A stretch of 22,939 nt of DNA from a virus (taxonomy: Duplodnaviria; Heunggongvirae; Uroviricota; Caudoviricetes): positions 1-22,939 of the IMG/VR virus record IMGVR_UViG_2671181100_000006. One strand, given 5' to 3'. Every line of letters begins with the position of its first letter. Position 1 is the stretch's first letter. The notes beneath the pieces were generated by a model. That model was not told where the DNA came from, did no database searches, and worked only from the letters and a program-made list of their open reading frames with translations. The translations under genes and the position numbers were made by a program. Shown one piece after another: positions 1,226 through 21,443 of the stretch.

Positions 1226-2539
1226 ATGAGCGGTGGGGTTGAGCTTAATATAGATGTCATGAAAGCACTAAGGTGGCTTGCAGAAACGACTACTGACCCT
1301 CAAGGATTTTCCGAGAGATTGGAAGTCGCTCAGGATAACTATATTAAAGAAACATCAAAGAAGGTGAATTTTGGTGCCCCGTTTGACAAAAGTTGGTATG
1401 GCGATGATGTTGTCGCTGGTTTTTTTTCGCAAGCGAAGTCTTTAATTGATAATCGACGAGCATTTGAAATATCTACCGCGTCACAAATCATTCCTTGGGT
1501 TAAACAATTAGGTCAAAACGTAAAGATTCTTAATGAAATATCAGGAGCTAAAGAGCGGGCTAAAAGAATGCTCGATAGCACCAGTGTTTATCCAGATACA
1601 GCATTGTTTGAATTAATACTTGCAGGGAATTATGCCTCAATGGGATATGAGGTTGAGTTTATTCCTGAACGAAAGGGAATTGCAAAAACCCCGGAATTTA
1701 AATGTAGTTATGATGGCGGAGTGGAGTTTTTTGTTGAATGTAAAAGACTCCAAAAAGGGTCATATGCAATCCAGGAAGAACATACACACTTAATCAGAGC
1801 CCATTTGGCAGAACTTCGAATCCATTCTAAAAGGATGAGTGTCTGGATGGATGTGACCTATAAAACTGAAGTTAAAGAGACTCCTGATAATTATCTTTTG
1901 AATCATTTAAGTAACTATTATGGGAAAGATTACTCCTGGGATGATGATTTTGGTGTTGGATTTGTAAAAGCAGTGAATTTAAATTCGGCAAAATATGATG
2001 TGGAAGTTAACGGTTCACTTTCGTTTCATAGTAAACTAGCGAGGTTACTGAAAGGTAATCCGATTGGTGATGATTTTTATAATATCTTTGCGTCTGGTAG
2101 GCCTGATGAGCGTGATCAACGGTTTATTTCAAAAATTAAATACGCATCTTTGTTGACATGGCGTTGTATTAATGAAAAATCTTTGGATTGTCGTTCTCGG
2201 CATATTAAAAGCACATTGGCTGAAATAGAAAAACAAATTTCTAATAATGGGCTTGGTGTTGGTCATGTTGCAATAGATGCTGATATTCAAAAGGATGTTG
2301 CAGATAAGCGGCGTGAGAAAAATCTTGAGGTTACGAAATCATTTAAGCTTGAGTCAAAGCTTGTACGGTTAAATATTCATTACCTTGTCCAACGTATAGA
2401 AGAAAGTCATTCTTGGATGGTTGATGAAACTCTTGACTATTTTTATACCGATAAGCTCATAGAGTATTTTATTCCAGCTGTTCAAATATTTCCTGATGCC
2501 GATGAATTTAACAACGACCTGCCAGGTTGGCATCAATGA
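1226..2539 (+). CDS. Hypothetical 437-aa protein; AT-rich cargo gene between int and xis; possible PD-(D/E)xK-like nuclease core (speculative)
   Basis: Long uninterrupted ORF with RBS GAGGAAATGAT before the ATG. Codon usage is conspicuously A/T-rich compared with the flanking integrase and early-operon genes. No family recognised by eye. Segment ...GYEVEF...CSYDGGVEFFVECKRL... has an E/D...D...ExK arrangement. Confidence 0.7.
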   Translation: MSGGVELNIDVMKALRWLAETTTDPQGFSERLEVAQDNYIKETSKKVNFGAPFDKSWYGDDVVAGFFSQAKSLIDNRRAFEISTASQIIPWVKQLGQNVKILNEISGAKERAKRMLDSTSVYPDTALFELILAGNYASMGYEVEFIPERKGIAKTPEFKCSYDGGVEFFVECKRLQKGSYAIQEEHTHLIRAHLAELRIHSKRMSVWMDVTYKTEVKETPDNYLLNHLSNYYGKDYSWDDDFGVGFVKAVNLNSAKYDVEVNGSLSFHSKLARLLKGNPIGDDFYNIFASGRPDERDQRFISKIKYASLLTWRCINEKSLDCRSRHIKSTLAEIEKQISNNGLGVGHVAIDADIQKDVADKRREKNLEVTKSFKLESKLVRLNIHYLVQRIEESHSWMVDETLDYFYTDKLIEYFIPAVQIFPDADEFNNDLPGWHQ

Positions 2540-2579: not shown

Positions 2580-2765
2580 CTATGAATGTTTATTTATTCC
2601 TCCTTCATCTATCCAGCGGGTAACTGCTTTTCTACTATAACGAGTAGGATATGTTAGAACGGGTTGTGGAAAACCATGTTCTTTCCGTAATCTCCAAACG
2701 GCTGTTTTTTTCTTGCCCAACAGGTTAAAAACTTCCTGCTCTTCCATAAAATCATTCGCAGTCAT
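2580..2765 (-). CDS. xis: AlpA/Xis-family excisionase-like DNA-binding protein
   Basis: 61-aa basic protein (MTANDFMEEQEVFNLLGKKKTAVWRLRKEHGFPQPV...RWIDEGG) with the helix-turn-helix signature typical of AlpA/excisionase proteins partnering P4-type integrases. GAGGT RBS upstream. Confidence 0.7.
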   Translation of the reverse strand: MTANDFMEEQEVFNLLGKKKTAVWRLRKEHGFPQPVLTYPTRYSRKAVTRWIDEGGINKHS

Positions 2766-2787
2766 AAATTACCTCAATAATTCATTT

Positions 2788-3345
2788 TTACGCCCGAATC
2801 AAACGCTGCCAGATTGCGGAAACGTATTTAGCCTGGTGTTTGGCATCAGCAAGCGCGTTATGCATATCGCCCTCAAACGGTATGTCGCGGCGCGGATTGA
2901 TGCCAATCGCTCGACCTAATTCAACGATTGTTCGGACATCACGATCATTCCAAAATTTCCATATGCAGGGCATATACTCACGGTCATAGCTGGCCCGAAG
3001 GATTACATTGTCAAACGTAGCGCCATTACCCCAGACCTGAACTTTTTCTGGGTCGGCGTTATCACGTATGAAGCAATTCAAATTGCTCAATGCAGTAACA
3101 AGATTCATAGCCGCGTCTTTATCGCAAATGGCCTTTCGGGCCTCTTCGCTTTGCTGCATCCACCAAATAATCGTTTCAGGGTCAGGAATGGCACCGCCGT
3201 CTACTGCGCTTTTAAGGCTGACTACTCTGTAGAATTCCTCTCCGAGTTCGCCAGTTGAGGGCTCAAAAAAAACCGCACCGATGGAGACGATAGGGGCGTT
3301 TGGTTTATTGCCCATTGTTTCGAGGTCGATCATGAGGTTATTCAT
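2788..3345 (-). CDS. DnaQ-like DEDDh 3'-5' exonuclease (phage early exonuclease)
   Basis: Motifs IDLETMG (D-x-E), FDNVIL and HNALADA (H-x4-D). Start placed at the internal ATG (MNNLMIDLE...) preceded by AGGAG. Start overlaps the stop of the upstream gene (ATGA). Confidence 0.75.
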   Translation of the reverse strand: MNNLMIDLETMGNKPNAPIVSIGAVFFEPSTGELGEEFYRVVSLKSAVDGGAIPDPETIIWWMQQSEEARKAICDKDAAMNLVTALSNLNCFIRDNADPEKVQVWGNGATFDNVILRASYDREYMPCIWKFWNDRDVRTIVELGRAIGINPRRDIPFEGDMHNALADAKHQAKYVSAIWQRLIRA

Positions 3346-3725
3346 TTTTTCTCCTGCTGCGGTGCCGCTGGCAATGCGCATACTTCAACCGCTTTTTGAT
3401 AAATGAGTTTGATTGTCGGCCAGTCGATGGTCTGGTCTTCATGCCAGTCACCTCGCCCCTCACAATCGCCACAGCCGTCACCGTCACATTCAGGACAGAT
3501 GACCACACGGGGAATGCTGAACTCACCAGATAAAGCGTACTTTGCGCCGTTTTCGGCAGTCAGTTTCTTCGGCACCATCACGTAACCATCCCGAATTACA
3601 GGAGGGTTGCCAACTTTGCGGCGCTCCCTATCCAAGTCTGTTTGCAACTGAATCACCCAGCGAGCGAGTTCACCTTTTTCACCGGATTCAAGACGTAAAT
3701 CATCCAAACGATATTTATCAATCAT
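3342..3725 (-). CDS. Hypothetical protein with Cys-rich cluster (CPECDGDGCGDCEGRG), possible zinc ribbon
   Basis: ORF on the track is 3342-3782. I place the start at the internal ATG (MIDKYRLDD...) to minimise overlap with the upstream gene; start is uncertain. Confidence 0.5.
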   Translation of the reverse strand: MIDKYRLDDLRLESGEKGELARWVIQLQTDLDRERRKVGNPPVIRDGYVMVPKKLTAENGAKYALSGEFSIPRVVICPECDGDGCGDCEGRGDWHEDQTIDWPTIKLIYQKAVEVCALPAAPQQEKK

Positions 3726-4386
3726 TGCTGTTATCCTCACAGCAGTGGTGCCGCCCCTCTGGGTCAGTGGATACATGTCCACAGATATCGCACTCTATTT
3801 CATCCAGCACTACCGACGCTAGCTGCTCTTTGATGTGCAATCGCGGCTCACCATCTTTCGGCTCAGGCCACACCCGCGCCTTATTCACCGCTAGTTTTTC
3901 AATCATCGCCTTAGTGATTTGCTCGTCAGTGATACCGGCGCGGCGTTGGGCATCCCATAGCAGAAACTGCAAATCGGCCCACTCGCTGAGGTCGCCTGGT
4001 GCTGCTGCGGCTTCCAGCGCTTCTTTGCTTAAGTGTTTCAGTGGACCAATCGGGCCGACATTACCAAAGGTGGCCTGAGACCACGCGGTGTGCTCGCGGC
4101 GAACGTGCTCGCGGTCCGGCGCTGGCTGCGGTATGGCGTAGAGTTGCGCACCAAAGTCAGGAAGTTCGCCAGTGACCTGGACGAACTTTTGTTTACCTCC
4201 GTCAATTCCTAGCGGGTAGTAAGCTCTAATCTCTGCCACCGGCTCACTGTCCATTTCGGCCAGCGCGATGCGAGCCAGCTCCTCGGCCTCTTCAGCTGGC
4301 AGCATGACGTTGCTTCCGGCTCCGTAGGTTTCACGCCATGACTTAATTTTTTCCAGACGTTCTCTGGTTATGATTGATTGGGTCAT
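3718..4386 (-). CDS. MazG-like nucleotide pyrophosphohydrolase-type protein (DUF550 / dATP-dGTP pyrophosphohydrolase-like)
   Basis: 222 aa with AAGGAG RBS. C-terminal region (...SKEALEAAAAPGDLSEWADLQFLLWDAQRRAGITDEQITKAMIEKLAVNKARVWPEP...) resembles MazG-type all-alpha NTP pyrophosphohydrolase segments seen in prophage proteins. Assignment from memory, not a search. Confidence 0.5.
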   Translation of the reverse strand: MTQSIITRERLEKIKSWRETYGAGSNVMLPAEEAEELARIALAEMDSEPVAEIRAYYPLGIDGGKQKFVQVTGELPDFGAQLYAIPQPAPDREHVRREHTAWSQATFGNVGPIGPLKHLSKEALEAAAAPGDLSEWADLQFLLWDAQRRAGITDEQITKAMIEKLAVNKARVWPEPKDGEPRLHIKEQLASVVLDEIECDICGHVSTDPEGRHHCCEDNSND

Positions 4387-5456
4387 TAGCTGGACTCCTT
4401 ATCATTAGTTACAGATAAGTTTTTATTCACGATGGCATCCATCAATCGTGATGCAGCAGCCTTCTGGGCAGAGACATTGGCAATGACCGTTGGCCTGGAT
4501 TTCTCGCAGCTGGCGCAAATACCATCCCATGATGAAATGAGGAAGAAATCTTCACGATCGGCAATGCCGGTATTCATTACCAGGTCCTCAATCATCAGCG
4601 TGACCCCGCGAACTCCCCGGCCTTCACTTAACCTCTGTACTGCGTAGCCGAAGGCGTTAATCATCACAGCATGGAACTGGATGTACTCGCGTTTGTACTC
4701 AGCCTGATTCGTACCTCGGCGAATATCATCTAAACCAGTCAGCATCAGCCAAGCATTCCACAACCCCTCAAGATCATCCTGTGAGCAGGAATCTGAAAAT
4801 TTTGCCGTGGCATCACTAAGGGCTTTGAAGCTGACCCACTTATCACTTTTCGCAGGAACGACGTTATGCTCAAAATCGGTGACTTCAGAAAAGACGTCGT
4901 GTGAACTGATAAAACTGACCATCTCCTGCGCGTTCTTATCGCGCCCGTTATAGGCCATGTTGATAGCCGCAGATGGCTTCGAAACATTGTTGTTAATGTC
5001 GGAAAAGAACTGCTGCCGTGTTTTCAACGAGAGCTTATGTGTGAGCATTAGTGGTACGTGGATTGGTTCGCCAACTGTGCGGCAAAATTCGGCGATCCCC
5101 GCTGCACGGTGCTGGCCGTCGAAAAGCTTAATTTCTGCATCCATAGGGAAGCGCACAACACCAACGTTGGTATTGCCGAATTCCTGAAACTCAATCTCAG
5201 AGTTACAGTTACCGACCAGCGGTGGGATAATGAAGGGCTCTTTATTTTCGTGAGCATTAACCAGATATTCATAGAATTTCTTAGCACGCGCTGGGTTAAT
5301 TTCACGCTGAGAACGTTCTAAAGTATCTCCGTAATTATCACTGGCGAGGACGCGTGCCAAGGTTCGTGCTGGCACTGTCATCATAAGGACAATCGCTCCG
5401 CCCTGAACGCCGCGAGACGCAGGGAACTCAAAGAAATAATCTCCAACTATGCTCAT
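4386..5456 (-). CDS. DGQHR-domain protein (DndB-like, ParB/Srx superfamily)
   Basis: Contains the literal DGQHR motif (KLFDGQHRAAGI). Start placed at the ATG (MSIVGDYFF...) rather than the upstream GTG on the ORF track. Stop overlaps the start of the downstream gene by 1 nt. Confidence 0.7.
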   Translation of the reverse strand: MSIVGDYFFEFPASRGVQGGAIVLMMTVPARTLARVLASDNYGDTLERSQREINPARAKKFYEYLVNAHENKEPFIIPPLVGNCNSEIEFQEFGNTNVGVVRFPMDAEIKLFDGQHRAAGIAEFCRTVGEPIHVPLMLTHKLSLKTRQQFFSDINNNVSKPSAAINMAYNGRDKNAQEMVSFISSHDVFSEVTDFEHNVVPAKSDKWVSFKALSDATAKFSDSCSQDDLEGLWNAWLMLTGLDDIRRGTNQAEYKREYIQFHAVMINAFGYAVQRLSEGRGVRGVTLMIEDLVMNTGIADREDFFLISSWDGICASCEKSRPTVIANVSAQKAAASRLMDAIVNKNLSVTNDKESS

Positions 5457-5587
5457 GCTACCCACCACTCAATAAACATGCAGATACCAACGGTTACTAC
5501 GGCAATAAGCACCCAGCAGATCACATCGAACAAGGCGGCGAACCGACGTAGGGTGTATTTGCTATAATTCTCATGATCAATATTCAT
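5453..5587 (-). CDS. Small hydrophobic peptide (44 aa, predicted single transmembrane helix), not on the ORF track
   Basis: My own translation of the minus strand: MNIDHENYSKYTLRRFAALFDVICWVLIAVVTVGICMFIEWWVA. Its ATG overlaps the ParB-like stop (ATGA) and its TGA overlaps the DGQHR start (ATGA), suggesting translational coupling. Confidence 0.4.
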   Translation of the reverse strand: MNIDHENYSKYTLRRFAALFDVICWVLIAVVTVGICMFIEWWVA

Positions 5588-6369
5588 ACCGCCTCCCCAA
5601 TCACCCAACGAAGTGCGCTTGCATACTCACCCTCGGCTGATTCAAGGGCTTTGATGATTTCTTTGCGGGTTTTCAGGCGCGGCTTTGCCTCGCCGAGGAT
5701 CTGACGCTGACGCCGGGCTTTTTCATGGCCGGTTGTGCCAGCAGTTGCCGCTTCGATTTCAGAGACCTTCTCCCGCTGCTCTTCTGGTTTAAGCGATGCC
5801 AGCTGACGCGCCTGGGTAACGGTGACCGTTCCGGACTCCACTGCATCGCGAACAGCCTGGGTGGCATCCAGCAGAGACAGAGTTGCGCGTACGGTCTGGA
5901 CACTCACGCCAAACATCAGCGCTAAATCGTCCTCGTCGTGCCCGCGTTCCAGCGCATCAGCCATTTTCTTTGCTCGGCCCAGTGGCGTATCTGCCTGGCG
6001 GATTTCGTTAGCACTTACCATCGCCTGCGCCATGCGAACGGCGGAGCCACGTTTAGCGACTGCTGGAACCAGTAACGGTTCTTTGCCCTCTTTCGACAGA
6101 CGCTTGTTGGCTTCCAGTGTATGGCGCACACGCTGGCGACCATCGACTACACAAGACAGCCCTGTCTCCGGGTCTTTCCAGACGATAATCGGCTCAAGAA
6201 CGCCCTGGTCCATGATGTTCAGCACCATTGCCTCGCTGATAGGCAGGTGGATACGCTCATCGTAAAGCGGGTGCGTTTTGTCGGTAACCAGGTGCAGGTT
6301 TTCAGGTTCGAACGTCAAAACGTTCGTTTTGCCACTCGCGCCATATACCAGCTTTGAGTCTTTAGCCAT
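5584..6369 (-). CDS. ParB-like N-terminal domain protein (ParB/Srx nuclease-like fold plus helix-turn-helix)
   Basis: Motif ...GVLEPIIVWKDPETGLSCVVDGRQRVRHTLEA... matches the ParB box region (GERRxRAA-like). A downstream HTH-like segment (DLALMFGVSVQTVRATLSLL) follows. Confidence 0.7.
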   Translation of the reverse strand: MAKDSKLVYGASGKTNVLTFEPENLHLVTDKTHPLYDERIHLPISEAMVLNIMDQGVLEPIIVWKDPETGLSCVVDGRQRVRHTLEANKRLSKEGKEPLLVPAVAKRGSAVRMAQAMVSANEIRQADTPLGRAKKMADALERGHDEDDLALMFGVSVQTVRATLSLLDATQAVRDAVESGTVTVTQARQLASLKPEEQREKVSEIEAATAGTTGHEKARRQRQILGEAKPRLKTRKEIIKALESAEGEYASALRWVIGEAV

Positions 6370-6668
6370 TAGACAGCCTCCGGATTGCTGGTGGATGTCG
6401 TTGAGATACTCTTCAGATCGCGCATTGCTTCCAGTACGTGCATATTGCTGCGGTTTTTTGTGTGACGCTCAACAATTCGATCGCATTCTTTCGCCCAGGA
6501 AATAACTTCTTCCTTCATAGCGTCACGTTCTTTACATGCCTGCCGAAGGGTAATATTCGAAACATCGAGCATTGTTGCCAGCTCTTTAATAAGTTCTGAA
6601 TTTGCAGGAGGCATTGTTTTAGCTGCCTCAAAGGCATCTTTAATTAACTGCTGTACTGTTTTTCCCAT
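6369..6668 (-). CDS. Hypothetical early protein (99 aa)
   Basis: ORF with GGAG RBS; stop overlaps the ParB-like start codon. No family recognised. Confidence 0.5.
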   Translation of the reverse strand: MGKTVQQLIKDAFEAAKTMPPANSELIKELATMLDVSNITLRQACKERDAMKEEVISWAKECDRIVERHTKNRSNMHVLEAMRDLKSISTTSTSNPEAV

Positions 6669-6755
6669 TTTTTATTTCTCCAACTGACGCGCTGCAACGC
6701 GTTTTAGGGTGCAGCAACCCAACCCATGAGAATGGGGTAATTGCTGCTGTTCTAA

Positions 6756-7673
6756 TCAGGCTGCTGGTTTTTGTTCTTCGGGCTCTTTGTAGGCGAGCAG
6801 ATCACAAAGCTGGTTAATTACTTTACAGAACTGGAACATGTCCGTACCTGCCTGGTGACGCCAGCGGTAGGCTTTGTCGTCATCATCAGAATAATCATTA
6901 TCCTTGGTATCGATCCGCCGGAAATGGAACTTATCTGTAAGCAGAAAAGAGACGCCGCAGCCTCTTAATTCCATGTTATCGACGATAAAACCTGTGTTCA
7001 GGCTCTCCAGAATTTCACTGGTAACGGAAGTGTGTTCCGCAGAGTAGCGAATAACTTCTTTCTGTTCTGCCAGGCGGGATAGCTGGACATAATCACCGAC
7101 CTCAAACCCGGCAAAGGCTGATTCTTCGCCGTCCAGATGGTTTTTAAGGCGCGTTGTCAGGCCGTTTTTGATATCACTGATGTTGATCGTGACTGTTTTT
7201 ACTGAGCCAATCACTTTAACCAGCATCGCCCCGACTAAATTGGCAATATTTTTATTGGCGGAATTAATGATCAGCAGATTTTCTTCAGTGTTATACAGGA
7301 CCAGGATCAGAGACGACTTGATGAATGCCTGTTTGCAGAGCTGAACCTTAGCATCCTGGATAATGTTGTTACGGTCAGCGCGCTTCAATTTCTGACCACA
7401 CGCATTTTCGATGCGCTGGATACGCTCATTGGCTTCTTTCATTACGACGTGCTGGGGGATTATTTTCTCATCGCGGCGAACCACGATTGCATAACCGCCA
7501 GTAATTGGCGTAACCAGCTCGCCAGTAATCGGATTAGGGACGAAGGAAGCCCGCGCGAACTCCGTTTCTGTAAGTTCAGAGTAGGGCAATTCCTGCAGGT
7601 GCCCTTCAACCGCTTCAATGCTGGGCAAAGTAGCCCGATAGACAATGGCGTTACGTAACTTTGATATTTTCAT
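6756..7673 (-). CDS. rdgC: Recombination-associated protein RdgC homologue
   Basis: 305 aa, similar in length to E. coli RdgC (303 aa). N-terminus (MKISKLRNAIVYRATLP...) resembles the RdgC N-terminus (…FKNLMVYRL…). GAGGA RBS. Confidence 0.65.
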   Translation of the reverse strand: MKISKLRNAIVYRATLPSIEAVEGHLQELPYSELTETEFARASFVPNPITGELVTPITGGYAIVVRRDEKIIPQHVVMKEANERIQRIENACGQKLKRADRNNIIQDAKVQLCKQAFIKSSLILVLYNTEENLLIINSANKNIANLVGAMLVKVIGSVKTVTINISDIKNGLTTRLKNHLDGEESAFAGFEVGDYVQLSRLAEQKEVIRYSAEHTSVTSEILESLNTGFIVDNMELRGCGVSFLLTDKFHFRRIDTKDNDYSDDDDKAYRWRHQAGTDMFQFCKVINQLCDLLAYKEPEEQKPAA

Positions 7674-8333
7674 TTCTGTTTCCTCTGCAAAGGATTAGTT
7701 AGTTATCTCCACACAACGGAAAGAGCACTGAAGCACTGGAAACTCACTTGACTAACACAGTGCTTTTTCCTGTTGTGTGCCGGGCTTCCACCGGCTCCCA
7801 TCTGTTTTTAAAGCCACTCAGATATCGTCTGGGCTGTGCCGTCTACTTCCGGCTGTCACTGCCGTCGAGAGTGCTGGCAGCTCACTGACCTGATAACTCC
7901 CAGGATCAACTGGAGTGGTTGTTATCGCTACCAAAGCGCCACTGTCCAGGACATTTAAAAGGACCGTCTCCAAGTGGTAACTCTTCCAGTCCCGCTAAAC
8001 ACTCGTGTAAATGCTTAACGTGAATGGCTGATATCCTCGTCTCTTCCGAGGCGTCACACCTTTTCGCCGCGCTGGTGGGGCGCACGTCGTGCCTGAACAC
8101 TTAGCTTGCACATTCCGGTTGTTCTGAGAGGCATGGATAAAGGGACTCTCAGGCCGCTAACGCTGCATGTGCCATACAACGGTCATGAATATTGCCGTTC
8201 ACAACTGGAAGCGCACTCCTTCAGTTACAAACCGATCCCCACCGGAAAGAAGGGGAATGCGCTTCCATGTTGTGTTCTGTTCATCCTTGTCCGTAAGTTT
8301 CGTCATGTGCCGACGAGTAGAAGATAATCATAA

Positions 8334-8370
8334 ATTGCGAGTAACGCAATAGATGTGTGCGTAAAACGCA
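8334..8370. promoter_or_regulatory. Candidate left operator (OL) with two inverted-repeat sites, ATTGCGagtaaCGCAAT and TGCGtaaaaCGCA; probable pL region
   Basis: Palindromic GCG-N5-CGC sites read directly from the sequence, of the same type as three sites in the cI-cro intergenic region. Located just beyond the repressor-gene terminator, where a leftward early promoter is expected. Confidence 0.4.
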
Positions 8371-8380
8371 AATTTAGGGC

Positions 8381-8406
8381 GAAAAAAAAGGCCTCGAATG
8401 AGGCCT
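8381..8406 (-). terminator. Rho-independent terminator downstream of the repressor gene (minus strand)
   Basis: Hairpin AGGCCTC-gaat-GAGGCCT followed on the minus strand by an 8-nt U-tract (A8 on the plus strand at 8382-8389). Confidence 0.6.
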
Positions 8407-8424
8407 AGTTTATGATGATGAATG

Positions 8425-9120
8425 CTATCCATGCCGTTTAAAGGACTGAGACTGGCTTATTAAAACCTTTCCATAGATATAGAATCTGTGTTCATTCTCT
8501 TTAGTTATATTCCATTCTCTATAACGAGGGTTATCAGAGATGACTAGCAGTTGGTCTGGTATCATCTGCAGGCGTTTAACATAAACTTTTCCATCAAAAC
8601 CAAAGACGTAAATCCCATCCCCATCGAACTCATTGATAGTTACGTCCACAAAGATTAGGTCGCCAGGCTCAATCGTTGAGGCCATGCTATCACCGCGAAC
8701 GTTGATGACCTTTACTCCAGATGGAGTCCTGCCACCAAACATTGCCAATGCCTGATCATTGCTGAACTCGATAGCATGAATGACATCTATGACGTCACTA
8801 CCGTGTATATGTCCTGCCCCGGCGCTTGCGCTCACATCAAGTACCTCGACTCTGTATACATCCACATCCTTTACGGGAGATGCATATTTTTCACTGTTTA
8901 TATGTACAGTAGTATCATTTTCGTCAGAGGTAAATAGGTCAGGTACACTTACGCTTAAAGCTTGAGCAAGTCGGTTAAGTGTCTGTTCTGAAAACTGCTT
9001 TTGTTTACCAGTTTCAAGCCTGGAAATATTGGCAGCATCAACGCCCACAGCTTCTGCAAGCTCTGCGATTTTAATGTTCTTCGCTAAGCGAAGTTGTCGT
9101 ATGCGAGATCCTATTTTCAT
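8425..9120 (-). CDS. cI: CI-like prophage repressor (XRE-type HTH plus S24 LexA-like autopeptidase domain)
   Basis: N-terminal HTH (IRQLRLAKNIKIAELAEAVGVDAANISRLETG) and C-terminal S24 motifs (GDSM...VKRL). Divergent from cro across an operator-containing intergenic region. Confidence 0.85.
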   Translation of the reverse strand: MKIGSRIRQLRLAKNIKIAELAEAVGVDAANISRLETGKQKQFSEQTLNRLAQALSVSVPDLFTSDENDTTVHINSEKYASPVKDVDVYRVEVLDVSASAGAGHIHGSDVIDVIHAIEFSNDQALAMFGGRTPSGVKVINVRGDSMASTIEPGDLIFVDVTINEFDGDGIYVFGFDGKVYVKRLQMIPDQLLVISDNPRYREWNITKENEHRFYIYGKVLISQSQSFKRHG

Positions 9121-12536: not shown

Positions 12537-13517
12537 ATGAGAGCACTACTAACCCCTGAGATTGCCCCACGCATGGGCGTTGTTCTGCTTCGCCCAGGCG
12601 CTGATCTCATGCCGATGTTCAGGAGAGGGCGGGTACTGATTGAGCCTGCACCGGAAAAATACAGCGACTACGCAACCGGCGCTATCCCTCCCGCCACGCA
12701 GCCACTGGCAGAAGACCCGGTTTTGAAGCCAGTCTTCGAAAACAAAGACGTCATTCTGCGCGCGGGTGGTATCAGCTCGCTGGAGGCCGAGCTGGAGCGT
12801 CGTTTTGAATGCCAGTATCCGCATGGCTCGTGGCACAGCGAAAATTTTACGCTGTTCCGGCATGAGCCTGGCAGCATCCGCCTTTGCTGGGCCTGCGATA
12901 ACCTGGTGCGTGATCAGTACACAGAGACGCTGGCAGGCATTGCGCGTGGGAACCTGGTATCCTGGTTGATAACGGTCATCCGCTCACAGCTGGGGTTCAA
13001 CGAAGACCATCAACTGACGATCCCAGAGTTGTGCTGGTGGCTGGTAATAAACAATCTGGCGCACGTCATCCCTGAATCGCTGGCCCGGAAAGCCCTGCGA
13101 TTGCCGGAAATAAAGCATCAACCGGTGATGAAGGAGAGCGATATTGTGCCGGAGCCAGCGGCGAGCGAAGTGGTGCAGAAAAAGATTCTCGGTCTTCGCG
13201 TAGATCCTGAAACGCCGGAATCATTTATGCTGCGACCAAAGCGCCGCCGCTGGGTAAACGAGAGCTGGACGCGCTGGGTTAAGTCTCAGTCGTGTGTCTG
13301 CTGTAACAAACAAGCAGATGATCCCCATCACCTGATAGGCCACGGACAAGGTGGAATGGGAACAAAAGCGCATGACCTGTTTGTGTTGCCGCTTTGCAGA
13401 GCGCATCACGACGAGTTGCACGCTGACACCGTGGCATTTGAGGAGAAGCACGGCTCACAGCTGGAGCTGCTGTTTCGATTTCTGGATCGTTCGCTGGCAA
13501 TTAGCGTGCTGGCATAG
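12537..13517 (+). CDS. Phage protein with C-terminal DUF968-like / HNH-like Cys-His motif
   Basis: C-terminus CVCCNKQADDPHHLIGHGQGGMGTKAHDLFVLPLCRAHHDELH resembles HNH/DUF968 zinc-binding regions common in lambdoid nin regions. Assignment from memory. Confidence 0.5.
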   Translation: MRALLTPEIAPRMGVVLLRPGADLMPMFRRGRVLIEPAPEKYSDYATGAIPPATQPLAEDPVLKPVFENKDVILRAGGISSLEAELERRFECQYPHGSWHSENFTLFRHEPGSIRLCWACDNLVRDQYTETLAGIARGNLVSWLITVIRSQLGFNEDHQLTIPELCWWLVINNLAHVIPESLARKALRLPEIKHQPVMKESDIVPEPAASEVVQKKILGLRVDPETPESFMLRPKRRRWVNESWTRWVKSQSCVCCNKQADDPHHLIGHGQGGMGTKAHDLFVLPLCRAHHDELHADTVAFEEKHGSQLELLFRFLDRSLAISVLA

Positions 13518-13530
13518 TGGAGAACGCATA

Positions 13531-14109
13531 ATGATTAACCCGTCCGAGGTTGGAAAAGCTGGTGAAATGGTCAGGCTGAAAACGCTGGAGGCCATCTGGA
13601 TTCAGGGGAAGCTGCGCATGTGGGGCCGCTGGTCTTACATCGGCGGCGGTAGTGGCGGCAATATGTTTAACCAGTTACTGGCTTCCGGGAAAGTCACTAA
13701 AACAGCCATCAACGAAGCATTACGCCGGATGAAGAAGTCCGGCATCTCGAAGCCAGAGCTTGAGGCGTTTTTTCGTGAAATACTCGCGGGGAAAAACAAA
13801 AGCGGCCTGGCCTTCTGTACAGACGATGAAGGACTGCTGATTGATAAGGTACTGGGGGCAGTCCTCATTACGGGTGGTCATAAAGAGCTATACCACCTGC
13901 TGGTGGAGCATTACCGGTTACGGAAGAGCAAACGCCGCATAGCGGAAGAGCTCTATGAAAAGCATCCAGACTGGTGCTTTATGACATGCAGACGAAGAGT
14001 TGATACATGGCTAAGTTTGGCAGAATCGATGCTGTACGCACCAATGTGTGACGCATTCGGCACAAATGGCGACAGATTTTACTTGCAAAGTGAGCCAGAA
14101 ACTGCTTGA
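13531..14109 (+). CDS. Q: Late-gene antiterminator Q (phage 82-type family)
   Basis: Start placed at the ATG (MINPSEV...) with GGAG RBS, in frame with the longer track ORF. Motif KLRMWGRW resembles the ERWGAW signature of phage 82-type Q proteins. Followed by a terminator. Confidence 0.65.
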   Translation: MINPSEVGKAGEMVRLKTLEAIWIQGKLRMWGRWSYIGGGSGGNMFNQLLASGKVTKTAINEALRRMKKSGISKPELEAFFREILAGKNKSGLAFCTDDEGLLIDKVLGAVLITGGHKELYHLLVEHYRLRKSKRRIAEELYEKHPDWCFMTCRRRVDTWLSLAESMLYAPMCDAFGTNGDRFYLQSEPETA

Positions 14110-14154
14110 ATTGTGATAGGCTCGGGACGTTAAAGCGAACTGAGCAGCAGAACC

Positions 14155-14186
14155 AAAAAAAACCCGCTTAAAGGCGGGTTTTGTGC
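14155..14186 (+). terminator. Rho-independent terminator after Q (possible tR' or insulating terminator)
   Basis: A8 run, hairpin ACCCGC-ttaaag-GCGGGT, then TTTTG. Confidence 0.6.
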
Positions 14187-14260
14187 GAAAAATAGCCACT
14201 CCAAGATGGCCCATTAAAGCATGGTAAAATACGTGTTAACCCCACAAAGAGGAGTTAGAC

Positions 14261-14500
14261 ATGGCTATTACCCTGCATCAAAAAGAAATCATGATTCTCA
14301 TGACGGACCCCAACTTAAAAGTGCCGGTCCAACACACCAACTTCCCTTTTGAGCATCCATACAAAATTGATTCGGCTATAGAGCAGCTATATCGGATGGG
14401 ATACATTACAGCAATACAGTCGAAATCTGATTCTAGTTGGCTCGCCACTTCAATCACACCAAAAGGTTATGTCTTTCTTAACGAGGCAGGGTTGGTTTAA
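14261..14500 (+). CDS. Hypothetical small protein (79 aa), moron between Q and the lysis cassette
   Basis: Strong RBS AGAGGAG. Upstream extended -10-like element TGGTAAAAT at about 14228-14240. Followed by its own terminator. Confidence 0.6.
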   Translation: MAITLHQKEIMILMTDPNLKVPVQHTNFPFEHPYKIDSAIEQLYRMGYITAIQSKSDSSWLATSITPKGYVFLNEAGLV

Positions 14501-14531
14501 TAGAATTTCAGCAACTGTGTATATCAAAAGT

Positions 14532-14556
14532 AAAACCCCGCTTCGGCGGGTTTTTT
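14532..14556 (+). terminator. Rho-independent terminator
   Basis: AAAACCCCGC-ttcg-GCGGG followed by TTTTTT. Confidence 0.65.
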
Positions 14557-14665
14557 CATTTATGGCCCAGGCTAAAAATTGCATATTAACCGTGAAACGC
14601 ATAAGCCTGCGGCCTGAATTCTTTCCCCTCGTTCTGAGAGGATTCACAGCAATAGAGGGGGACCG

Positions 14666-15052
14666 ATGTCCGAACCAATAACCGGCACAGGCTTAGCTGG
14701 TGGCGCTTTAACTGGGGCGAGTGTTTACGGGCTATTAACCGGTACAGACTACGGTGTTGTGTTCGGGGCATTTGCTGGTTCCGTCTTTTATATAGCGACA
14801 GCGGCCGATTTGAGCGCCCCACGACGGATGGCATATTTCGTTGTGTCCTATATTGCTGGAGTTCTGTGCTCCGGGCTGGTCGGTTCTAAGTTATCCGACC
14901 TTACCGGGTACAACGATAAGCCTCTGGATGCAATTGGTGCCGTAATCATTTCGGCATTGGCCGTAAAAATACTCACCTTCCTGAACAATCAGGATATTGG
15001 CTCGCTGGTGGCGCTAATAACGCGCCGGGGAGGTTCCGGTGGTACTAAATGA
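14666..15052 (+). CDS. Holin (multi-TMD small membrane protein)
   Basis: 128-aa Gly/Ala-rich hydrophobic protein with several predicted TM helices and a charged C-terminus, first gene of the lysis cassette. RBS GAGGGGGA. Confidence 0.6.
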   Translation: MSEPITGTGLAGGALTGASVYGLLTGTDYGVVFGAFAGSVFYIATAADLSAPRRMAYFVVSYIAGVLCSGLVGSKLSDLTGYNDKPLDAIGAVIISALAVKILTFLNNQDIGSLVALITRRGGSGGTK

Positions 15053-15320
15053 TCCTACTGCAACCATCAATGCGCTGTTATGTGCTGGTGTCGTTGTTAC
15101 GTTGATGTTCTATCGCCGCAGAGACTCACGTCATCGTAAGTGGGTGTCGCGGCTGGCATGGCTGATAACAGTGATTTACAGCTCTGTGCCGTTGGCGTAT
15201 CTGTGCGGCATCTATCCCTATTCATCATGGCCCACCATTGCGGCCAATATCATGATCCTTGTTGTGCTGCTGAGCGTAAGAGGCAATGTAGCGCGGCTGG
15301 TTGATGCACTGAGGCACTAA
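15039..15320 (+). CDS. Small membrane protein of the lysis cassette (second holin / antiholin-like)
   Basis: 93 aa with three hydrophobic segments. GTG start preceded by GGGAGG. Overlaps the holin 3' end and its stop overlaps the endolysin start. Confidence 0.5.
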   Translation: MVLNDPTATINALLCAGVVVTLMFYRRRDSRHRKWVSRLAWLITVIYSSVPLAYLCGIYPYSSWPTIAANIMILVVLLSVRGNVARLVDALRH

Positions 15321-15949
15321 TGAATCAAACACAATTCCAGAAGGCGGCTGGTATCAGCGCCGGGTTAGCTGCGCGCTGGTATCCGCATATTACAGCTGCG
15401 ATGAAAGAGTTCGGCATCACTGCTCCACTCGATCAGGCAATGTTCATTGCTCAATGCGGCCATGAAAGCCTCGGTTTTAACAGGGTGGTGGAGAATTTCA
15501 ACTACAGCATCGCCGGGCTTGCTGATTTTGTTCGTTACGGCAGGTTAACGCAGGATCAGGCCAATTCCCTCGGGCGTAGCCAGTCGGAAACAGTGTTACC
15601 TCTGGAGCGCCAGCGGGCTATCGCCAACATTGTCTATAGCAAGCGGTTGGGTAACAACAGGGCAACTGATGGATGGGCTTATCGTGGGCGCGGACTTATT
15701 CAAATAACCGGATTGTCAAATTACCGGGACTGCGGTAACGGGCTGAAGGTTGATCTAGTGGCACAGCCAGAATTACTGGAGCAGTCCTCGTACGCGGCCC
15801 GTAGTGCAGCGTGGTTCTATGTCTCAAAAGGTTGCTTGAAATATCCGGGTGAGCTTGTCCGGGTTACTCAGATTATCAACGGCGGACAAAACGGGATTAA
15901 TAACCGGCGCGCTCGCTTCCTGAAAGCAAAATCGGTACTGGTGGTGTGA
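15320..15949 (+). CDS. Endolysin, glycoside hydrolase family 19 (chitinase-like lysozyme)
   Basis: GH19 signature ...WAYRGRGLIQITGLSNYRDCG... and catalytic-region CGHESLGF. Sits between the holin genes and the spanins. Confidence 0.75.
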   Translation: MNQTQFQKAAGISAGLAARWYPHITAAMKEFGITAPLDQAMFIAQCGHESLGFNRVVENFNYSIAGLADFVRYGRLTQDQANSLGRSQSETVLPLERQRAIANIVYSKRLGNNRATDGWAYRGRGLIQITGLSNYRDCGNGLKVDLVAQPELLEQSSYAARSAAWFYVSKGCLKYPGELVRVTQIINGGQNGINNRRARFLKAKSVLVV

Positions 15950-16227
15950 TCATGGGAATCGAAGCTATCGCGGGGCTGGTGGTTGTCATCCTGGGTGCTA
16001 TCGCTGGCGCGTTCGGCATCGGCCATGCTCGCGGGACCAGTAAGGCAGAAGCCAAAGCCGATCAGCAGCGTACCGAAGAGAACGCCGCCGCCACCGTCGC
16101 CGCGGCAGAACGTAAGGCGGAAGTTGTGAAAGAGGCAAGCGATGTACAGCAAACCGTTAGTCATATGCCTGATGACGATGTTGATCGCGAGCTGCGCGAA
16201 AAGTTTACCCGCCCCGGTAGTCGTTGA
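15946..16227 (+). CDS. i-spanin (Rz-like inner-membrane spanin subunit)
   Basis: N-terminal TM segment (IAGLVVVILGAIAGAFGI) followed by a charged periplasmic domain. Start is GTG at 15946 or ATG at 15952. Confidence 0.6.
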   Translation: MIMGIEAIAGLVVVILGAIAGAFGIGHARGTSKAEAKADQQRTEENAAATVAAAERKAEVVKEASDVQQTVSHMPDDDVDRELREKFTRPGSR

Positions 16228-16357
16228 TACGGCCTGCAGCTGGGTGAGGGTCATCTACCTGACCGACCACGATATTGACGTGCTGGATAAGCAGACCAAG
16301 CGCGACATTCTGGCGCATAACAAAGCAGTGGAAGTCAACTGCCAGAAAGGGAAGTGA
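16142..16357 (+). CDS. o-spanin (Rz1-like outer-membrane lipoprotein), overlapping the i-spanin in another frame
   Basis: Signal peptide with lipobox (MTMLIASC). Begins inside the i-spanin gene in a different frame and extends beyond it. Confidence 0.6.
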   Translation: MYSKPLVICLMTMLIASCAKSLPAPVVVDTACSWVRVIYLTDHDIDVLDKQTKRDILAHNKAVEVNCQKGK

Positions 16358-16418
16358 TATTGCTCAAAATTAAATGAGATTTATCTTAATTGCTTTAGTG
16401 CCAGGAAGTAGATTGAAG

Positions 16419-16664
16419 ATGCTGCAATTGGCAGTATCACTCTGGGACATAACAATGGGACAGTATTACTACGTCAATAAAAATGTTCAGGCAAACGGAG
16501 ATCATGAGGTGCATGTCACCGGGTGTACCTTTATGCCTGCATCAGAAAACCGCGTGTACCTTGGAATATTTGAAACCTGCCGTCCTGCAGTAGTAGAAGC
16601 GAAGAAATATTATTCTCAATCAAATGGTTGTTATTACTGCTGTAGAGCTTGTCATACTTCATAG
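16419..16664 (+). CDS. Hypothetical small protein with Cys-rich C-terminus (…NGCYYCCRACHTS)
   Basis: Track ORF 16374-16664. Start uncertain (ATG at 16374, 16419 or 16455); AGGAAG lies upstream of 16419. Followed by a terminator. Confidence 0.4.
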   Translation: MLQLAVSLWDITMGQYYYVNKNVQANGDHEVHVTGCTFMPASENRVYLGIFETCRPAVVEAKKYYSQSNGCYYCCRACHTS

Positions 16665-16682
16665 TTAACCAAAAACAATCGC

Positions 16683-16708
16683 AAGGTCGCCAATGGCGGC
16701 CTTTTTTA
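16683..16708 (+). terminator. Rho-independent terminator
   Basis: AAGGTCGCC-aat-GGCGGCCTT (one G-U wobble) followed by TTTTTT. Confidence 0.5.
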
Positions 16709-16731
16709 TTGCCAGAAGCAGGAGAAGAAGC

Positions 16732-16926
16732 ATGTTAACAGTAAAAGTAATGTCACCAGATGGTGGCGAAGAAATCCATTGCGGCCTGAGCGTTGGTTTC
16801 AACCCCAATCAGCAGAGTATCGCAGTGTCGGGAATGGACCAGAACGTTTTCCTGAAGCAGGGAGAAGTGGCGTACGTGATGAACGCAAACGGAAAGACCA
16901 TTTCCCGTTACGAGCACTTGACCTGA
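16732..16926 (+). CDS. Hypothetical small protein (64 aa)
   Basis: Start at the internal ATG (MLTVKVMSPDGG...) preceded by AGGAG; the longer track ORF would run through the terminator. Confidence 0.5.
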   Translation: MLTVKVMSPDGGEEIHCGLSVGFNPNQQSIAVSGMDQNVFLKQGEVAYVMNANGKTISRYEHLT

Positions 16927-17264
16927 CAATAAGCAGCACTGGCGCCCTTCATTGAAGGGCATCAATAATGATAAACCGAAGCATCTGCCTTAAGTGTTAT
17001 AAAAAACCCCGTGGAGGAAATCCCAAAGCTACGGGGTGCTGTACAGCCAGCCAATGACTGATTGTAGCCACGAAGTTGGTTTATTTTCTACTGGTTGAGA
17101 ATAAAACTGAGAGCCAGGAAGGCTTGAGAGTGGCTCATTCATGAGCTCACGGGTAGAACGGCAGACTTTGTCATGGCAGAGCAAAGTTATAAGTTAGTTT
17201 AGGTAACATTTCGGATATAACAAGCGTAGCGGGGTATTCCTAATAATGGAGCACCGCAGCTAAA

Positions 17265-17303
17265 GCATTACAGGAGCCATTCACCGAGTGGCTTCGATAA
17301 TGC
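17265..17303. repeat. Copy 1 of a ~40-bp nested stem-loop element (GCATTACAG-gAGCCAttcaccgagTGGCTtc-GATAATGC)
   Basis: Outer inverted repeat GCATTA/TAATGC; inner stem AGCCA/TGGCT; loop TTCACCGAG. Lies 25 nt upstream of the ATG at 17329. Confidence 0.6.
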
Positions 17304-17328
17304 TCCCCACATCGCACAGAGGTAAGAC

Positions 17329-17574
17329 ATGGCAGAGATCACCGTATCCGAACAAATCCGCCTGGATATCATCAAAAAAGTTAACTACGACACCGCAGCG
17401 GCCAAGCTGGCCATTGACTGGGTAGGGGACAGCTATCTGAAGTCTGAGCTATTCGCAGACTCTTTCGATCGTGTTTTCACGGAAAGCGAGATTGTCTCGA
17501 AGACCCGTAAGGCCATCCAGGAAGCGACCGAAGCGCTGGCGCTGTTTGATACCAGCGCAGAGCAGGCGAGCTAA
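17329..17574 (+). CDS. Hypothetical protein (81 aa)
   Basis: RBS GAGGT. Flanked on both sides by copies of the stem-loop element. Confidence 0.6.
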   Translation: MAEITVSEQIRLDIIKKVNYDTAAAKLAIDWVGDSYLKSELFADSFDRVFTESEIVSKTRKAIQEATEALALFDTSAEQAS

Positions 17575-17575
17575 G

Positions 17576-17614
17576 GCATTACAGCAGGCATTCACTGAGT
17601 GCCTGTGATAATGC
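17576..17614. repeat. Copy 2 of the stem-loop element (GCATTACAGc-AGGCAttcactgagTGCCTg-TGATAATGC)
   Basis: Same outer inverted repeat. Inner stem is AGGCA/TGCCT, a compensatory G-C swap relative to copy 1 that preserves pairing. Begins right after the stop codon of the 17329-17574 gene. Confidence 0.6.
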
Positions 17615-17679
17615 CGTGCTCAATTGCGGTACTGTTGTTTCCCCTGTTAATCTGTCCCAAACAAACCGATGGGGATAGG

Positions 17680-18060
17680 GACGTGAAAAAGTTACTTTTT
17701 GCAGCATTAATTGGTGTTTCAGCTTTAACAATTACCGCATGTGCGCCAACAGTCCAGAAAGTAGATTACAACCAGAGATCAATGCTTTTATCTCTTGGAA
17801 TGAATAAAAACGACGTCATGCAGATCATGGGGTCGCCACGCAGGACTGATGTGAACCAGGAACGCGAACGCTGGATATACTGGAATAAGGCTCTCTATGG
17901 TTACACAATCATTGATAACGAACAATTGGCTAACGATCGACTGGTTATAACGTTCGTTAATGGTAAGGTCACCAAGTGGGGTCAGCAAACGCTGACTGAT
18001 GACATAATGGAGTCATCACAAAAGAGTGCACAGGCTTATGCTGAGGCATTCAAGAAATAG
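17680..18060 (+). CDS. Phage lipoprotein, BamE/SmpA-OmlA-like (moron)
   Basis: Start at GTG (MKKLLFAALIGVSALTITAC...) giving a signal peptide plus lipobox ITAC; the longer track ORF start is unlikely. BamE-like assignment (...LSLGMNKNDVMQIMGSPRR...ERWIYW...) is from memory. Confidence 0.55.
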   Translation, partial: DVKKLLFAALIGVSALTITACAPTVQKVDYNQRSMLLSLGMNKNDVMQIMGSPRRTDVNQERERWIYWNKALYGYTIIDNEQLANDRLVITFVNGKVTKWGQQTLTDDIMESSQKSAQAYAEAFKK

Positions 18061-18079
18061 ACATTTCAGTCAAATGATA

Positions 18080-18104
18080 ACCTCGCTTTGGCGGGGTTTT
18101 TTTA
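18080..18104 (+). terminator. Rho-independent terminator
   Basis: CCTCGC-tttg-GCGGGG (one G-U wobble) followed by T8. Confidence 0.6.
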
Positions 18105-18125
18105 TATCTAAAAGAGGTAAAACCG

Positions 18126-18311
18126 ATGAGCTTTAAACATGAACTTGGTCAGGTGGTAACCGTTACTATCAGTGAAGAAAAAGGGCATATCAAAGCTCGC
18201 GCTGAATATACGCATAGCCCCAATCAGTACCTTATTCATTATCACGCAGCAGACGGGCGAGCTGTAGACGCATGGTTTGAAGAAGGGGAGCTGTCTCCAT
18301 CTGCACTGTAG
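18126..18311 (+). CDS. Hypothetical small protein (61 aa)
   Basis: RBS AAAGAGG; compact ORF between a terminator and copy 3 of the stem-loop element. Confidence 0.5.
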   Translation: MSFKHELGQVVTVTISEEKGHIKARAEYTHSPNQYLIHYHAADGRAVDAWFEEGELSPSAL

Positions 18312-18317
18312 ACGCAC

Positions 18318-18360
18318 GCATTACAGAAGCCCTTCACATTGCGAGGAGCTTTGATAATGC
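18318..18360. repeat. Copy 3 of the stem-loop element (GCATTACAG-AAGCCCttcacattgcgagGAGCTTt-GATAATGC), more diverged
   Basis: Same outer GCATTACAG...GATAATGC arms. Inner region has an insertion and one stem mismatch. Begins 7 nt after the stop of the 18126-18311 gene. Confidence 0.5.
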
Positions 18361-18498
18361 GAATGAATATCATTATCGATGGATGGAAGGGGGTGTGTAG
18401 ACGTTTAGATGTCTAAATGTCTACATGGTCGATTTCTCCTGGCAATGTGCAAATGATAGTCATTATCATTTAAGGGTCCTCCCAGAGGGGGAGGTTAC

Positions 18499-18520
18499 CA
18501 CGGGGCGGCGGACTCGCGGA
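18499..18520. other. Candidate cosN (cohesive-end site); predicted 12-nt cohesive end GGGCGGCGGACT at 18503-18514
   Basis: CACGGGGCGGCGGACTCGCGG matches the phage lambda cosN region as I recall it (TACGGGGCGGCGACCTCGCGG) at 18 of 21 positions. Lies ~115 bp upstream of the Nu1-like small terminase gene, the lambda arrangement. Confidence 0.55.
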
Positions 18521-18631
18521 AAACGGCTAGTTTTCATTTTTCATAGTCATCATCATCATGTGCACAGGTTATTGATTTTCCAGATGTCGGATTTTCAATG
18601 ATGTCGAATCGTATAAAAAGTGTTCACCATC

Positions 18632-21231: not shown

Positions 21232-21443
21232 AACAAACCGATATTGAATCCATTATCCAGCGTTATACCGATGCGGAAATAGCTGTGCTGGATGGAAAGT
21301 CTATTACATTCAACGGACAGCAGATGACGCTGGAGAACCTGTCCGAAATCCGCAAGGGGCGTCAGGAATGGGAGCGCCGTCTTGCATCCCTGTTGGCTCA
21401 ACGTCACGGGCGACCTGGTTATAAACTCGCGAGGTTTCCATGA
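21228..21443 (+). CDS. Head-tail joining protein (lambda gpW-like)
   Basis: Start placed at GTG 21228 (AGGAGG RBS; GTGA overlap with the terminase stop). Small protein in the W position, with a C-terminal ...RHGRPGYKLARF resembling gpW ...RRGPAGFYV. Confidence 0.55.
   Translation: MKQTDIESIIQRYTDAEIAVLDGKSITFNGQQMTLENLSEIRKGRQEWERRLASLLAQRHGRPGYKLARFP

Follow-up and report, generated by a model that had tools for sequence, protein, structure and literature searches.

A conserved 44-codon gene in the early-left operon of a lambdoid prophage, predicted to encode a single-pass membrane microprotein

A 44-codon open reading frame (ORF) of 135 bases occupies positions 5453-5587 on the minus strand of the window, the 22,939-nucleotide stretch of viral DNA that was analyzed here as a whole, and comparative evidence indicates that it is a genuine protein-coding prophage gene. 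Its product is predicted to be a single-pass membrane microprotein. The overall reading that we favor, and consider fairly probable, is of a coding gene in the early-left operon, ATGA-coupled to its neighbors, that forms a single-helix microprotein cassette and whose N-in product acts as an inner-membrane accessory by binding a membrane partner. The best inference as to its expression and place in the cell is an early-expressed, translationally coupled accessory microprotein of the inner membrane. RefSeq, GenBank, and PHROGs already list both the gene and its family as hypothetical. The operon, the small gene, and the two genes that adjoin it are as follows.

2580-7673, minus strand: early-left operon, from the annotation and family scans
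4386-5456, minus strand: DGQHR/DndB-like gene, 356 aa, with matches to TIGR03187 (194.9 bits) and Pfam DndB (3.5e-44)
5453-5587, minus strand: small gene, predicted single-pass membrane microprotein, from its translation, a full-length phrog_2936 match, RefSeq WP_254913183.1, the open frame in relatives, and a dN/dS of 0.43
5584-6369, minus strand: ParB-like gene, 261 aa, with HTH_ParB and phrog_1033 matches; the constant upstream partner of the small gene

In this lambdoid Klebsiella/E. coli prophage the early-left operon has the repressor on one side and the integrase on the other. It consists of rdgC, a hypothetical gene, the ParB-like gene, the small gene, the DGQHR gene, a DUF550-type gene, a second hypothetical gene, a 3'-5' exonuclease gene, and a xis-like gene, and the gaps at its eight junctions run +22, -4, -8, -1, -4, -4, -1, and +87; six are overlaps, three of them ATGA. 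ATGA is the commonest gene overlap in prokaryotes (PMC6728339), and the tidy ATGA junctions of the small gene are normal gene packing in an ATGA-coupled early operon built from cassettes. A consensus scan found no promoter-like site on the minus strand inside the operon and located no promoter of the operon's own, and the region held 5 promoter-like sites where 8.6 are expected by chance. The sole guide to the timing of small-gene expression is therefore gene order.

The small gene starts with ATG at 5587-5585 and ends with TGA at 5455-5453, is short and AT-rich (44% GC), and has the translation MNIDHENYSKYTLRRFAALFDVICWVLIAVVTVGICMFIEWWVA. Read on the minus strand, the region around 5620-5440 is ...GGGGAGGCGGT ATG AAT ATT ... 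GTA GCA TGA GC..., in which the ParB-like gene ends as GTA TGA with its stop at 5586-5584. The earlier note on this DNA had described a start that overlaps the ParB-like stop and a stop that overlaps the DGQHR start, each as ATGA; both overlaps are as described, on the minus strand, at 5587-5584 and 5456-5453. The elements at the two junctions are listed below.

5592-5598, minus strand: Shine-Dalgarno sequence GGGGAGG, within the final ParB-like codons and 4 nt 5' of the small-gene ATG
5584-5587, minus strand: ATGA junction of the ParB-like stop (TGA) with the small-gene ATG, found in 80/80 peptide-seeded loci (as TTGA in two)
5461-5466, minus strand: SD-like element GGTGGG, supplied by the codons of W41 and W42 and lying 4 nt 5' of the DGQHR ATG; putative in role
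5453-5456, minus strand: ATGA junction of the small-gene stop with the DGQHR ATG (5456-5454); also a mosaic breakpoint, where prophage homology ends

The GGGGAGG sequence is kept in 41 of 42 loci, the same bases being constrained also by the C-terminal codons of ParB, and the ATGA into the next ORF is present in 82/82 loci irrespective of which gene comes downstream. An alternative TTG start at 5608, which would give 51 aa, was rejected: the ATG has a Shine-Dalgarno sequence, starts all homologs, and is the choice of RefSeq. As in known ATGA termination-reinitiation pairs (PMC6728339), a 4-nt stop/start overlap is combined with a Shine-Dalgarno element in the 3' end of the upstream gene, here at both ends of the ORF and as read from the sequence. 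Experiments on gene pairs of E. coli have demonstrated coupling through ATGA (Huber et al. 2019, PMC6728339). The overlaps, together with GGGGAGG 4 nt upstream, make re-initiation by ribosomes arriving from the ParB-like gene possible. In the two adjacent tryptophan codons W41-W42 (TGG TGG), constraint on the peptide is inseparable from a nucleotide-level role as the SD-like element of the downstream gene.

The fit between the two neighboring genes, which the earlier note had judged unlikely to arise by chance, is weak evidence by itself, because the frame stays open in 8.7% of cases when its interior bases are shuffled and overlapping junctions are usual in the left operon; it is the comparative data that show more than chance. 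The small-gene frame is open in 82 non-redundant related loci, and disruptions are rare: there is a single premature stop, in locus L081, the ATG start has become TTG in two cases, and a few database entries are frameshifted. Conservation of the frame in related prophages, proposed beforehand as a check, was thus borne out with rare exceptions. Substitutions were analyzed in 31 distinct nucleotide alleles, all of 44 codons. Even where identity has fallen to 56-62% in nucleotides and 36-44% in amino acids, these alleles keep an uninterrupted frame of exactly 44 codons, and both shifted forward frames carry stops in 31/31. The dN/dS of the small gene is 0.43 (bootstrap CI 0.28-0.66), which indicates moderately purifying selection on the peptide, while the shifted frames give 0.79 and 1.11 and ParB in the same loci gives 0.12. 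Two independent pairs of divergent alleles yield Fisher p = 0.004 and 0.009. The conserved C-terminal motif carries synonymous wobble changes (GAA/GAG, ACA/ACG/ACT), so that the constraint there acts on amino acids.

The proposal that the frame is a chance ORF in a non-coding spacer, and no gene at all, can draw on the shuffles that stay open and on the shortness and AT-richness of the sequence. Against it stands the comparative evidence as a whole, namely the phrog_2936 match described below, the homolog clusters, the open frame, and the dN/dS, so the proposal is effectively refuted and we give it almost no credence. A functional RNA element in place of a gene was also ruled out, as the small-gene region folds no more stably than its shuffles (z = +1.57) and a search of Rfam at E<=1 gave no match at the small gene and one chance sRNA match elsewhere. 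The ORF was also examined for a parS-like palindrome that could serve the ParB-like protein; this was rejected, as only weak palindromes (77%) occur there.

The description of the ORF as unannotated in the earlier note holds for that note's own ORF track and fails for the public databases. In NZ_AP021946.1, a record that is identical over the region, RefSeq has a CDS at exactly 5453-5587 (WP_254913183.1, "hypothetical protein"), and in Klebsiella phage ST101-KPC2phi6.3 (GenBank MK416017, 98% identical) the same ORF is QBQ71625.1, also "hypothetical protein". Among 25 phage records, the small gene is either called hypothetical or left uncalled. The protein matches phrog_2936 over its full length (E=1e-23, 84.1 bits, residues 1-44 on profile positions 1-44 of 44). 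With the phrog_2936/WP_254913183.1 family it shares length, hosts, and genomic position, with no differences, and it is a member of that family. Homolog clusters at 90% identity, drawn from 5.8 billion proteins, numbered 49 and then 115; nearly all are exactly 44 aa, and their sources are Klebsiella, Raoultella, and E. coli. When 1.84 billion representatives were searched exhaustively with a profile, no more than 24 clusters at 50% identity emerged, which marks a real family of narrow extent. Its length range is 41-52 aa in Klebsiella/Raoultella/E. coli prophages, and the divergent members retain a hydrophobic core with basic residues ahead of the helix, as well as a YS(K/R)(Y/R)xL motif and an (L/M)IEWW ending. 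PADLOC and NCBIfam, which cover defense, anti-defense, and curated families, returned no match for the small protein, and the PDB returned only E=0.1-0.3 matches to unrelated single-pass TM helices. Pfam DUF6693 was rejected as a candidate family, its match lying below threshold (18 vs 31 bits) and covering the TM helix only. Literature searches on DGQHR in phages, on the Klebsiella phage record, and on small phage genes yielded nothing on this protein.

The encoded protein has two recognizable parts.

5540-5584, minus strand: polar basic N-terminal tail, codons 2-16, from alignments and K/R bias; P5, Y8, S9, L13, R14 motif; predicted cytoplasmic
5459-5539, minus strand: predicted hydrophobic TM helix, codons 17-43, from hydrophobicity windows, AlphaFold2, and column conservation; includes T32, I35, C36, I39, E40, and W41

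The best 17-residue window, residues 23-39, has a summed Hessa energy of -3.2 and a mean Kyte-Doolittle value of 2.83. Across alleles the best 17-residue windows range from -3.2 to +0.4 in summed Hessa free energy, and divergent alleles are similar. In the AlphaFold2 prediction one helix takes up residues 5-43 (pLDDT 82.6). The hydrophobic stretch that had been pointed out earlier is therefore real, and TM prediction, suggested at the same time as a check, returns one TM helix. In most alleles there are three to five K/R residues on the N side and none on the C side, a bias that favors an N-in arrangement, ambiguous in alleles L046 and L082 with only 0-1 in the tail; the topology is probably N-in. 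Conservation sits at the N-terminal tail and the outer third of the helix, and mid-helix positions swap freely among hydrophobic residues. No one-sided conserved helical face of the kind expected of a packing interface was detected, the conservation moment at 100 degrees being not above permutations (p about 0.4). A lipoprotein signal peptide ending at C36 was rejected because an Ile at position -1 and an overlong h-region do not fit the customary lipobox rules.

Gene order in related phages separates what is constant about the small gene from what is exchanged around it. In 82 non-redundant loci the downstream neighbor belongs to one of ten unrelated families, including DUF550-type (28 loci), phrog_6675 (24), phrog_28696 (10), DGQHR (6 loci and 1 truncated), DpdA-like (4), and MT-A70 (3) genes. 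Prophage homology typically stops 1-4 nt past the small-gene stop codon, and the E. coli matches stop at query position 1249-1252, that is, at window positions 5452-5449. The DGQHR neighbor in the window is thus one of several occupants of a shared slot. The earlier note had the ORF precisely bridging the ParB-like and DGQHR genes and perhaps anchoring or regulating their module, and an anchor or regulator specific to that pair is indeed suggested by the window and a few relatives, in which the small gene lies exactly between both genes and is coupled to both. This is contradicted by the wider set of loci: DGQHR is downstream in 7 of the 82 as against ten alternative families, and it adjoins the small gene in 3 of the 30 E. 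coli matches listed. In 15 ParB loci DGQHR abuts ParB directly, with no small-gene homolog within about 6 kb, and in the more distant locus L179 a DndB-like gene lies four genes further downstream. A component of a dnd/DGQHR (DNA phosphorothioation-associated) module would be expected to co-occur consistently with the DGQHR/DndB gene, and these counts show that the small gene does not. The DGQHR protein of the window itself scores under the DndB equivalog cut-off (107 vs 328 bits), and the annotation of the locus contains no dndACDE genes. A module-specific role is extremely improbable, and the small gene should not be assigned to a ParB-DGQHR system.

The mosaic junctions raise another explanation, according to which the frame is kept as a coupling spacer or adaptor that passes ribosomes from ParB to the next cassette and provides conserved ends for exchange, the peptide itself being functionless. 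The ATGA junctions are invariant at both ends, both are mosaic breakpoints, the 3' end supplies the SD-like element, and selection on the peptide is only moderate, all of which such a spacer would explain. A spacer is not needed, however, as ParB is directly coupled to other genes in half of the loci. Moreover, the hydrophobic pattern, the length, and residues Y8, L13, I35, I39, and W41 persist at 30-40% identity, the motif shows synonymous changes, and the in-frame dN/dS is clearly below the out-of-frame values. We regard the spacer as highly improbable.

On the upstream side the picture is close to constant. A ParB-like gene, 79-100% identical, lies directly upstream in 80 of 80 peptide-seeded loci, in one of them as an internally deleted remnant. 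Among 5,426 complete E. coli genomes the small gene is found in 33, in a single copy each that adjoins ParB. A relative of about 40% identity (P0126, in L179) again follows ParB. Loci seeded with ParB (n=87) give the converse view: the gene directly 3' of ParB is the small gene in 43, DGQHR in 15, a phrog_1226 protein in 11 (63-74 aa, one truncated to 53 aa), and another gene in 18. In 44 of the 87 no small-gene homolog was found within about 6 kb, and an identical ParB C-terminus (...ALRWVLGEAV) precedes different genes in different phages. Variants of 48 and 52 aa occur in a rightward early operon, after genes for DnaB helicase, phrog_4183, and a Pol III theta/HOT homolog, and are followed by MT-A70 or Dam methylases, while the variant P0128 lies in a nin-like stretch 5' of an N6/N4 methylase; no ParB gene was found in those operons. 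These comparisons indicate that the small gene is an optional cassette on the 3' end of a phage ParB-like gene, in a near-constant position, and since about half of the ParB loci are without it, any role is accessory.

The near-constant position after a phage ParB-like gene leads to one specific hypothesis, that the microprotein tethers the ParB-like protein to the membrane or regulates it. Its cytoplasmic tail would attach to the ParB clamp and keep the clamp, with the phage DNA that it coats, at the inner membrane, or would gate the clamp's activity. The hypothesis gains from the upstream ParB-like gene in all 80 peptide-seeded loci and in the ~40%-identical relative, from translational coupling, which would link microprotein output to ParB translation, and from one contig in which an in-frame ParB C-terminus is fused to a TM helix. 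That contig, taken up as a possible "Rosetta stone" fusion, comes from just one read-archive assembly, in which ParB is frameshifted, and was set aside as too weak. Co-adaptation of ParB alleles with the small gene was likewise rejected: the ParB residues associated with its presence cluster only beside the junction, where linkage is expected. The 44 of 87 ParB loci that have no copy within about 6 kb, some with an identical ParB C-terminus, and the 48/52-aa and P0128 variants in operons without a nearby ParB also speak against a tether, which we consider unlikely though worth keeping in view. Still more speculative, and in our estimation very unlikely, is the extension in which the microprotein serves a phage ParB-like NTPase clamp as its partner in the membrane and holds ParB-coated phage DNA at the inner membrane. 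If this were true, incoming or replicating DNA could be modified or protected there by an enzyme from the downstream cassette (DGQHR/DndB-like, DpdA-like transglycosylase, MT-A70 or Dam methylase), and the ParB-microprotein pair would be a platform onto which DNA-modification enzymes that counter restriction are generically loaded. The platform has its one foundation in the conserved order of the genes, and the ParB loci lacking the small gene and the variants lacking ParB argue against an obligate role.

The favored reading of a coupled accessory membrane protein translates into the following sequence of events. The early operon would be derepressed at induction or infection, and the microprotein would be produced only then. 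Ribosomes that end the ParB-like gene would re-initiate on the small gene, and those that end the small gene would re-initiate on the next, so the amount of microprotein would be set by translation of the ParB-like gene. The product would insert into the inner membrane with its N-terminus in and its C-terminus out. The conserved tail and the outer end of the helix would then probably bind another membrane protein, of host or phage, as characterized bacterial small membrane proteins do. Beyond correct annotation the small gene matters little, being an ordinary phage microprotein in a tightly coupled mosaic operon. It is nevertheless a clean example of a conserved phage membrane microprotein, a class mostly without assigned functions.

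Lambdoid phages keep host-killing functions in early operons. The location of the small gene in such an operon, and a Lambda_Kil gene in a related locus, would suit a host-inhibiting membrane toxin (Kil-like, type-I-toxin-like, or pore-forming) that depolarizes the membrane or blocks division during early lytic growth, and the occasional TTG starts and truncations could reflect its cost. Size, a single TM helix, and short extensions fit the general build of small membrane toxins and are shared with the type I toxins Hok, TisB, DinQ, and ZorO (PMC12648545). However, type I toxin mRNAs uncouple translation from transcription (PMC12648545), whereas the small gene is translationally coupled to the gene upstream. 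Neither an antisense RNA antitoxin nor a processed transcript of its own with uncoupled translation, the marks of a type I toxin locus (PMC12648545), was found at the small gene, and the promoter scan, the fold z-score, and Rfam gave no own promoter, antisense RNA, or structured leader. PADLOC and NCBIfam show no homology to such toxins, the helix is neither amphipathic nor charge-zippered, and the prophage copies are nearly all intact. A toxin is, on these grounds, decidedly unlikely.

Binding to a membrane partner, as the favored reading has it, is how the small single-pass membrane regulators MgrB, AcrZ, and MgtS act (PMC12648545). These are likewise under 50 aa, with one TM helix and no catalytic domain, and by analogy the phage protein may be expected to act on a larger membrane protein too. 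It has no sequence similarity to them, and its gene is phage-encoded and operon-internal, whereas theirs are stress-regulated and stand-alone.

Early phage membrane proteins with a similar setting include T4 Imm and phi29 p16.7, of about 80-130 aa and with a functional soluble domain, which serve in superinfection exclusion or in DNA organization at the membrane; p16.7 links a DNA process to the membrane. The small protein resembles both in being small, putatively membrane-anchored, and presumably encoded on an early transcript, and a ParB tether would resemble p16.7. It differs from them in having no sequence similarity and only about 15 residues predicted to lie outside the membrane.

A holin or antiholin was also considered and rejected on the basis of position. 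Over its left 13.5 kb the window matches E. coli WP2-S18-ESBL-08 (NZ_AP021946.1) exactly, and beyond that point the two diverge; in that record a holin and an endolysin are annotated at locus positions 14669-15504, which places the lysis genes by way of NZ_AP021946.1, as the window is not colinear with it past ~13.5 kb. The small gene lies in the early-left operon, across the immunity region from the late genes, and is not part of a lysis cassette. A terminator hairpin is present 3' of the repressor gene.

In the related loci compared with the window (L010 to L089), the 3' end of the ParB-like gene (window 5584-5600) is a mosaic junction formed by its last codons, which encode ...ALRWVLGE and include the motif GGGGAGG. 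Beyond the identical ParB-like C-terminus, these loci continue with the small gene, with a gene for a 67-aa phrog_1226 protein, with DGQHR or DUF550-type genes, or with others, and the ParB-like gene and the next gene are nearly always joined by an ATGA overlap.

Just 3' of the pair formed by the ParB-like gene and the small gene, genes linked to DNA modification are recurrent, and the kinds found there are DGQHR/DndB-like, DpdA-like transglycosylase (phrog_887), MT-A70 methylase, and Dam methylase.

Positions of DNA-modification-linked genes in the window and in related loci
Window: 4386-5456 (-), DGQHR/DndB-like gene
Locus L047: 6914-7666
Locus L082: 6914-7504
Locus L169: 5144-5734
Locus L175: 5156-5986

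A ParB-like gene with modification genes downstream is reminiscent of the bacterial DpdA-DpdB pair, in which DpdA activity requires DpdB, a ParB-fold ATPase (PMC10164549). By analogy, the phage ParB-like protein might serve the DNA-modification enzymes.

The phage records OM816834 and OM816835, named as Stenotrophomonas phages, carry a small-gene copy of 50% identity followed by an MT-A70 methylase gene, together with a ParB segment of 89% identity. The Stenotrophomonas host attribution is odd, as the small-gene family is elsewhere found only in enterobacteria. The family also includes proteins of altered architecture, as listed below; the contig of the P0122 fusion, on which ParB is frameshifted, comes from a single read-archive assembly.

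Variants among homologous proteins of the small-gene family
P0093 and P0117: 62 and 68 aa, transmembrane segment duplicated in tandem
P0104/P0107: 52 aa, helix longer by 4 residues
P0122: locus L183, 541-828, in-frame deletion joining the ParB C-terminus to the helix; one contig

RefSeq calls the DUF550-type gene a pseudogene without an N-terminus (3718-4149); contrary to this call, the ORF is intact at 3718-4386 (-), with 222 codons and an ATG start that overlaps the DGQHR stop (TAATG), and it encodes a protein with a match to dATP/dGTP pyrophosphohydrolase (Pfam PF04447, 1.8e-40). On the strand opposite to the early operon and adjoining the integrase, window 1226-2539 (+) encodes a 437-aa hypothetical protein with no match in Pfam, PADLOC, or NCBIfam and only a weak PHROG match; moron genes or defence genes expressed in the lysogen are typically found at such a site. 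The 751 bp at 7674-8424, flanked by the repressor gene (8425-9120, -) and rdgC (6756-7673, -), carry no annotated gene; at 8406-8389 lies a strong hairpin with a run of T, and a consensus scan found no leftward promoter-like site and thus no promoter for the operon.

The identity of the window to E. coli NZ_AP021946.1 extends only as far as about 13.5 kb, therefore the RefSeq annotation of that record cannot be applied to the window's right half. From about 13,500 to 22,939, a position-by-position comparison gave 6,578 differences, which suggests a different mosaic segment in the late region.
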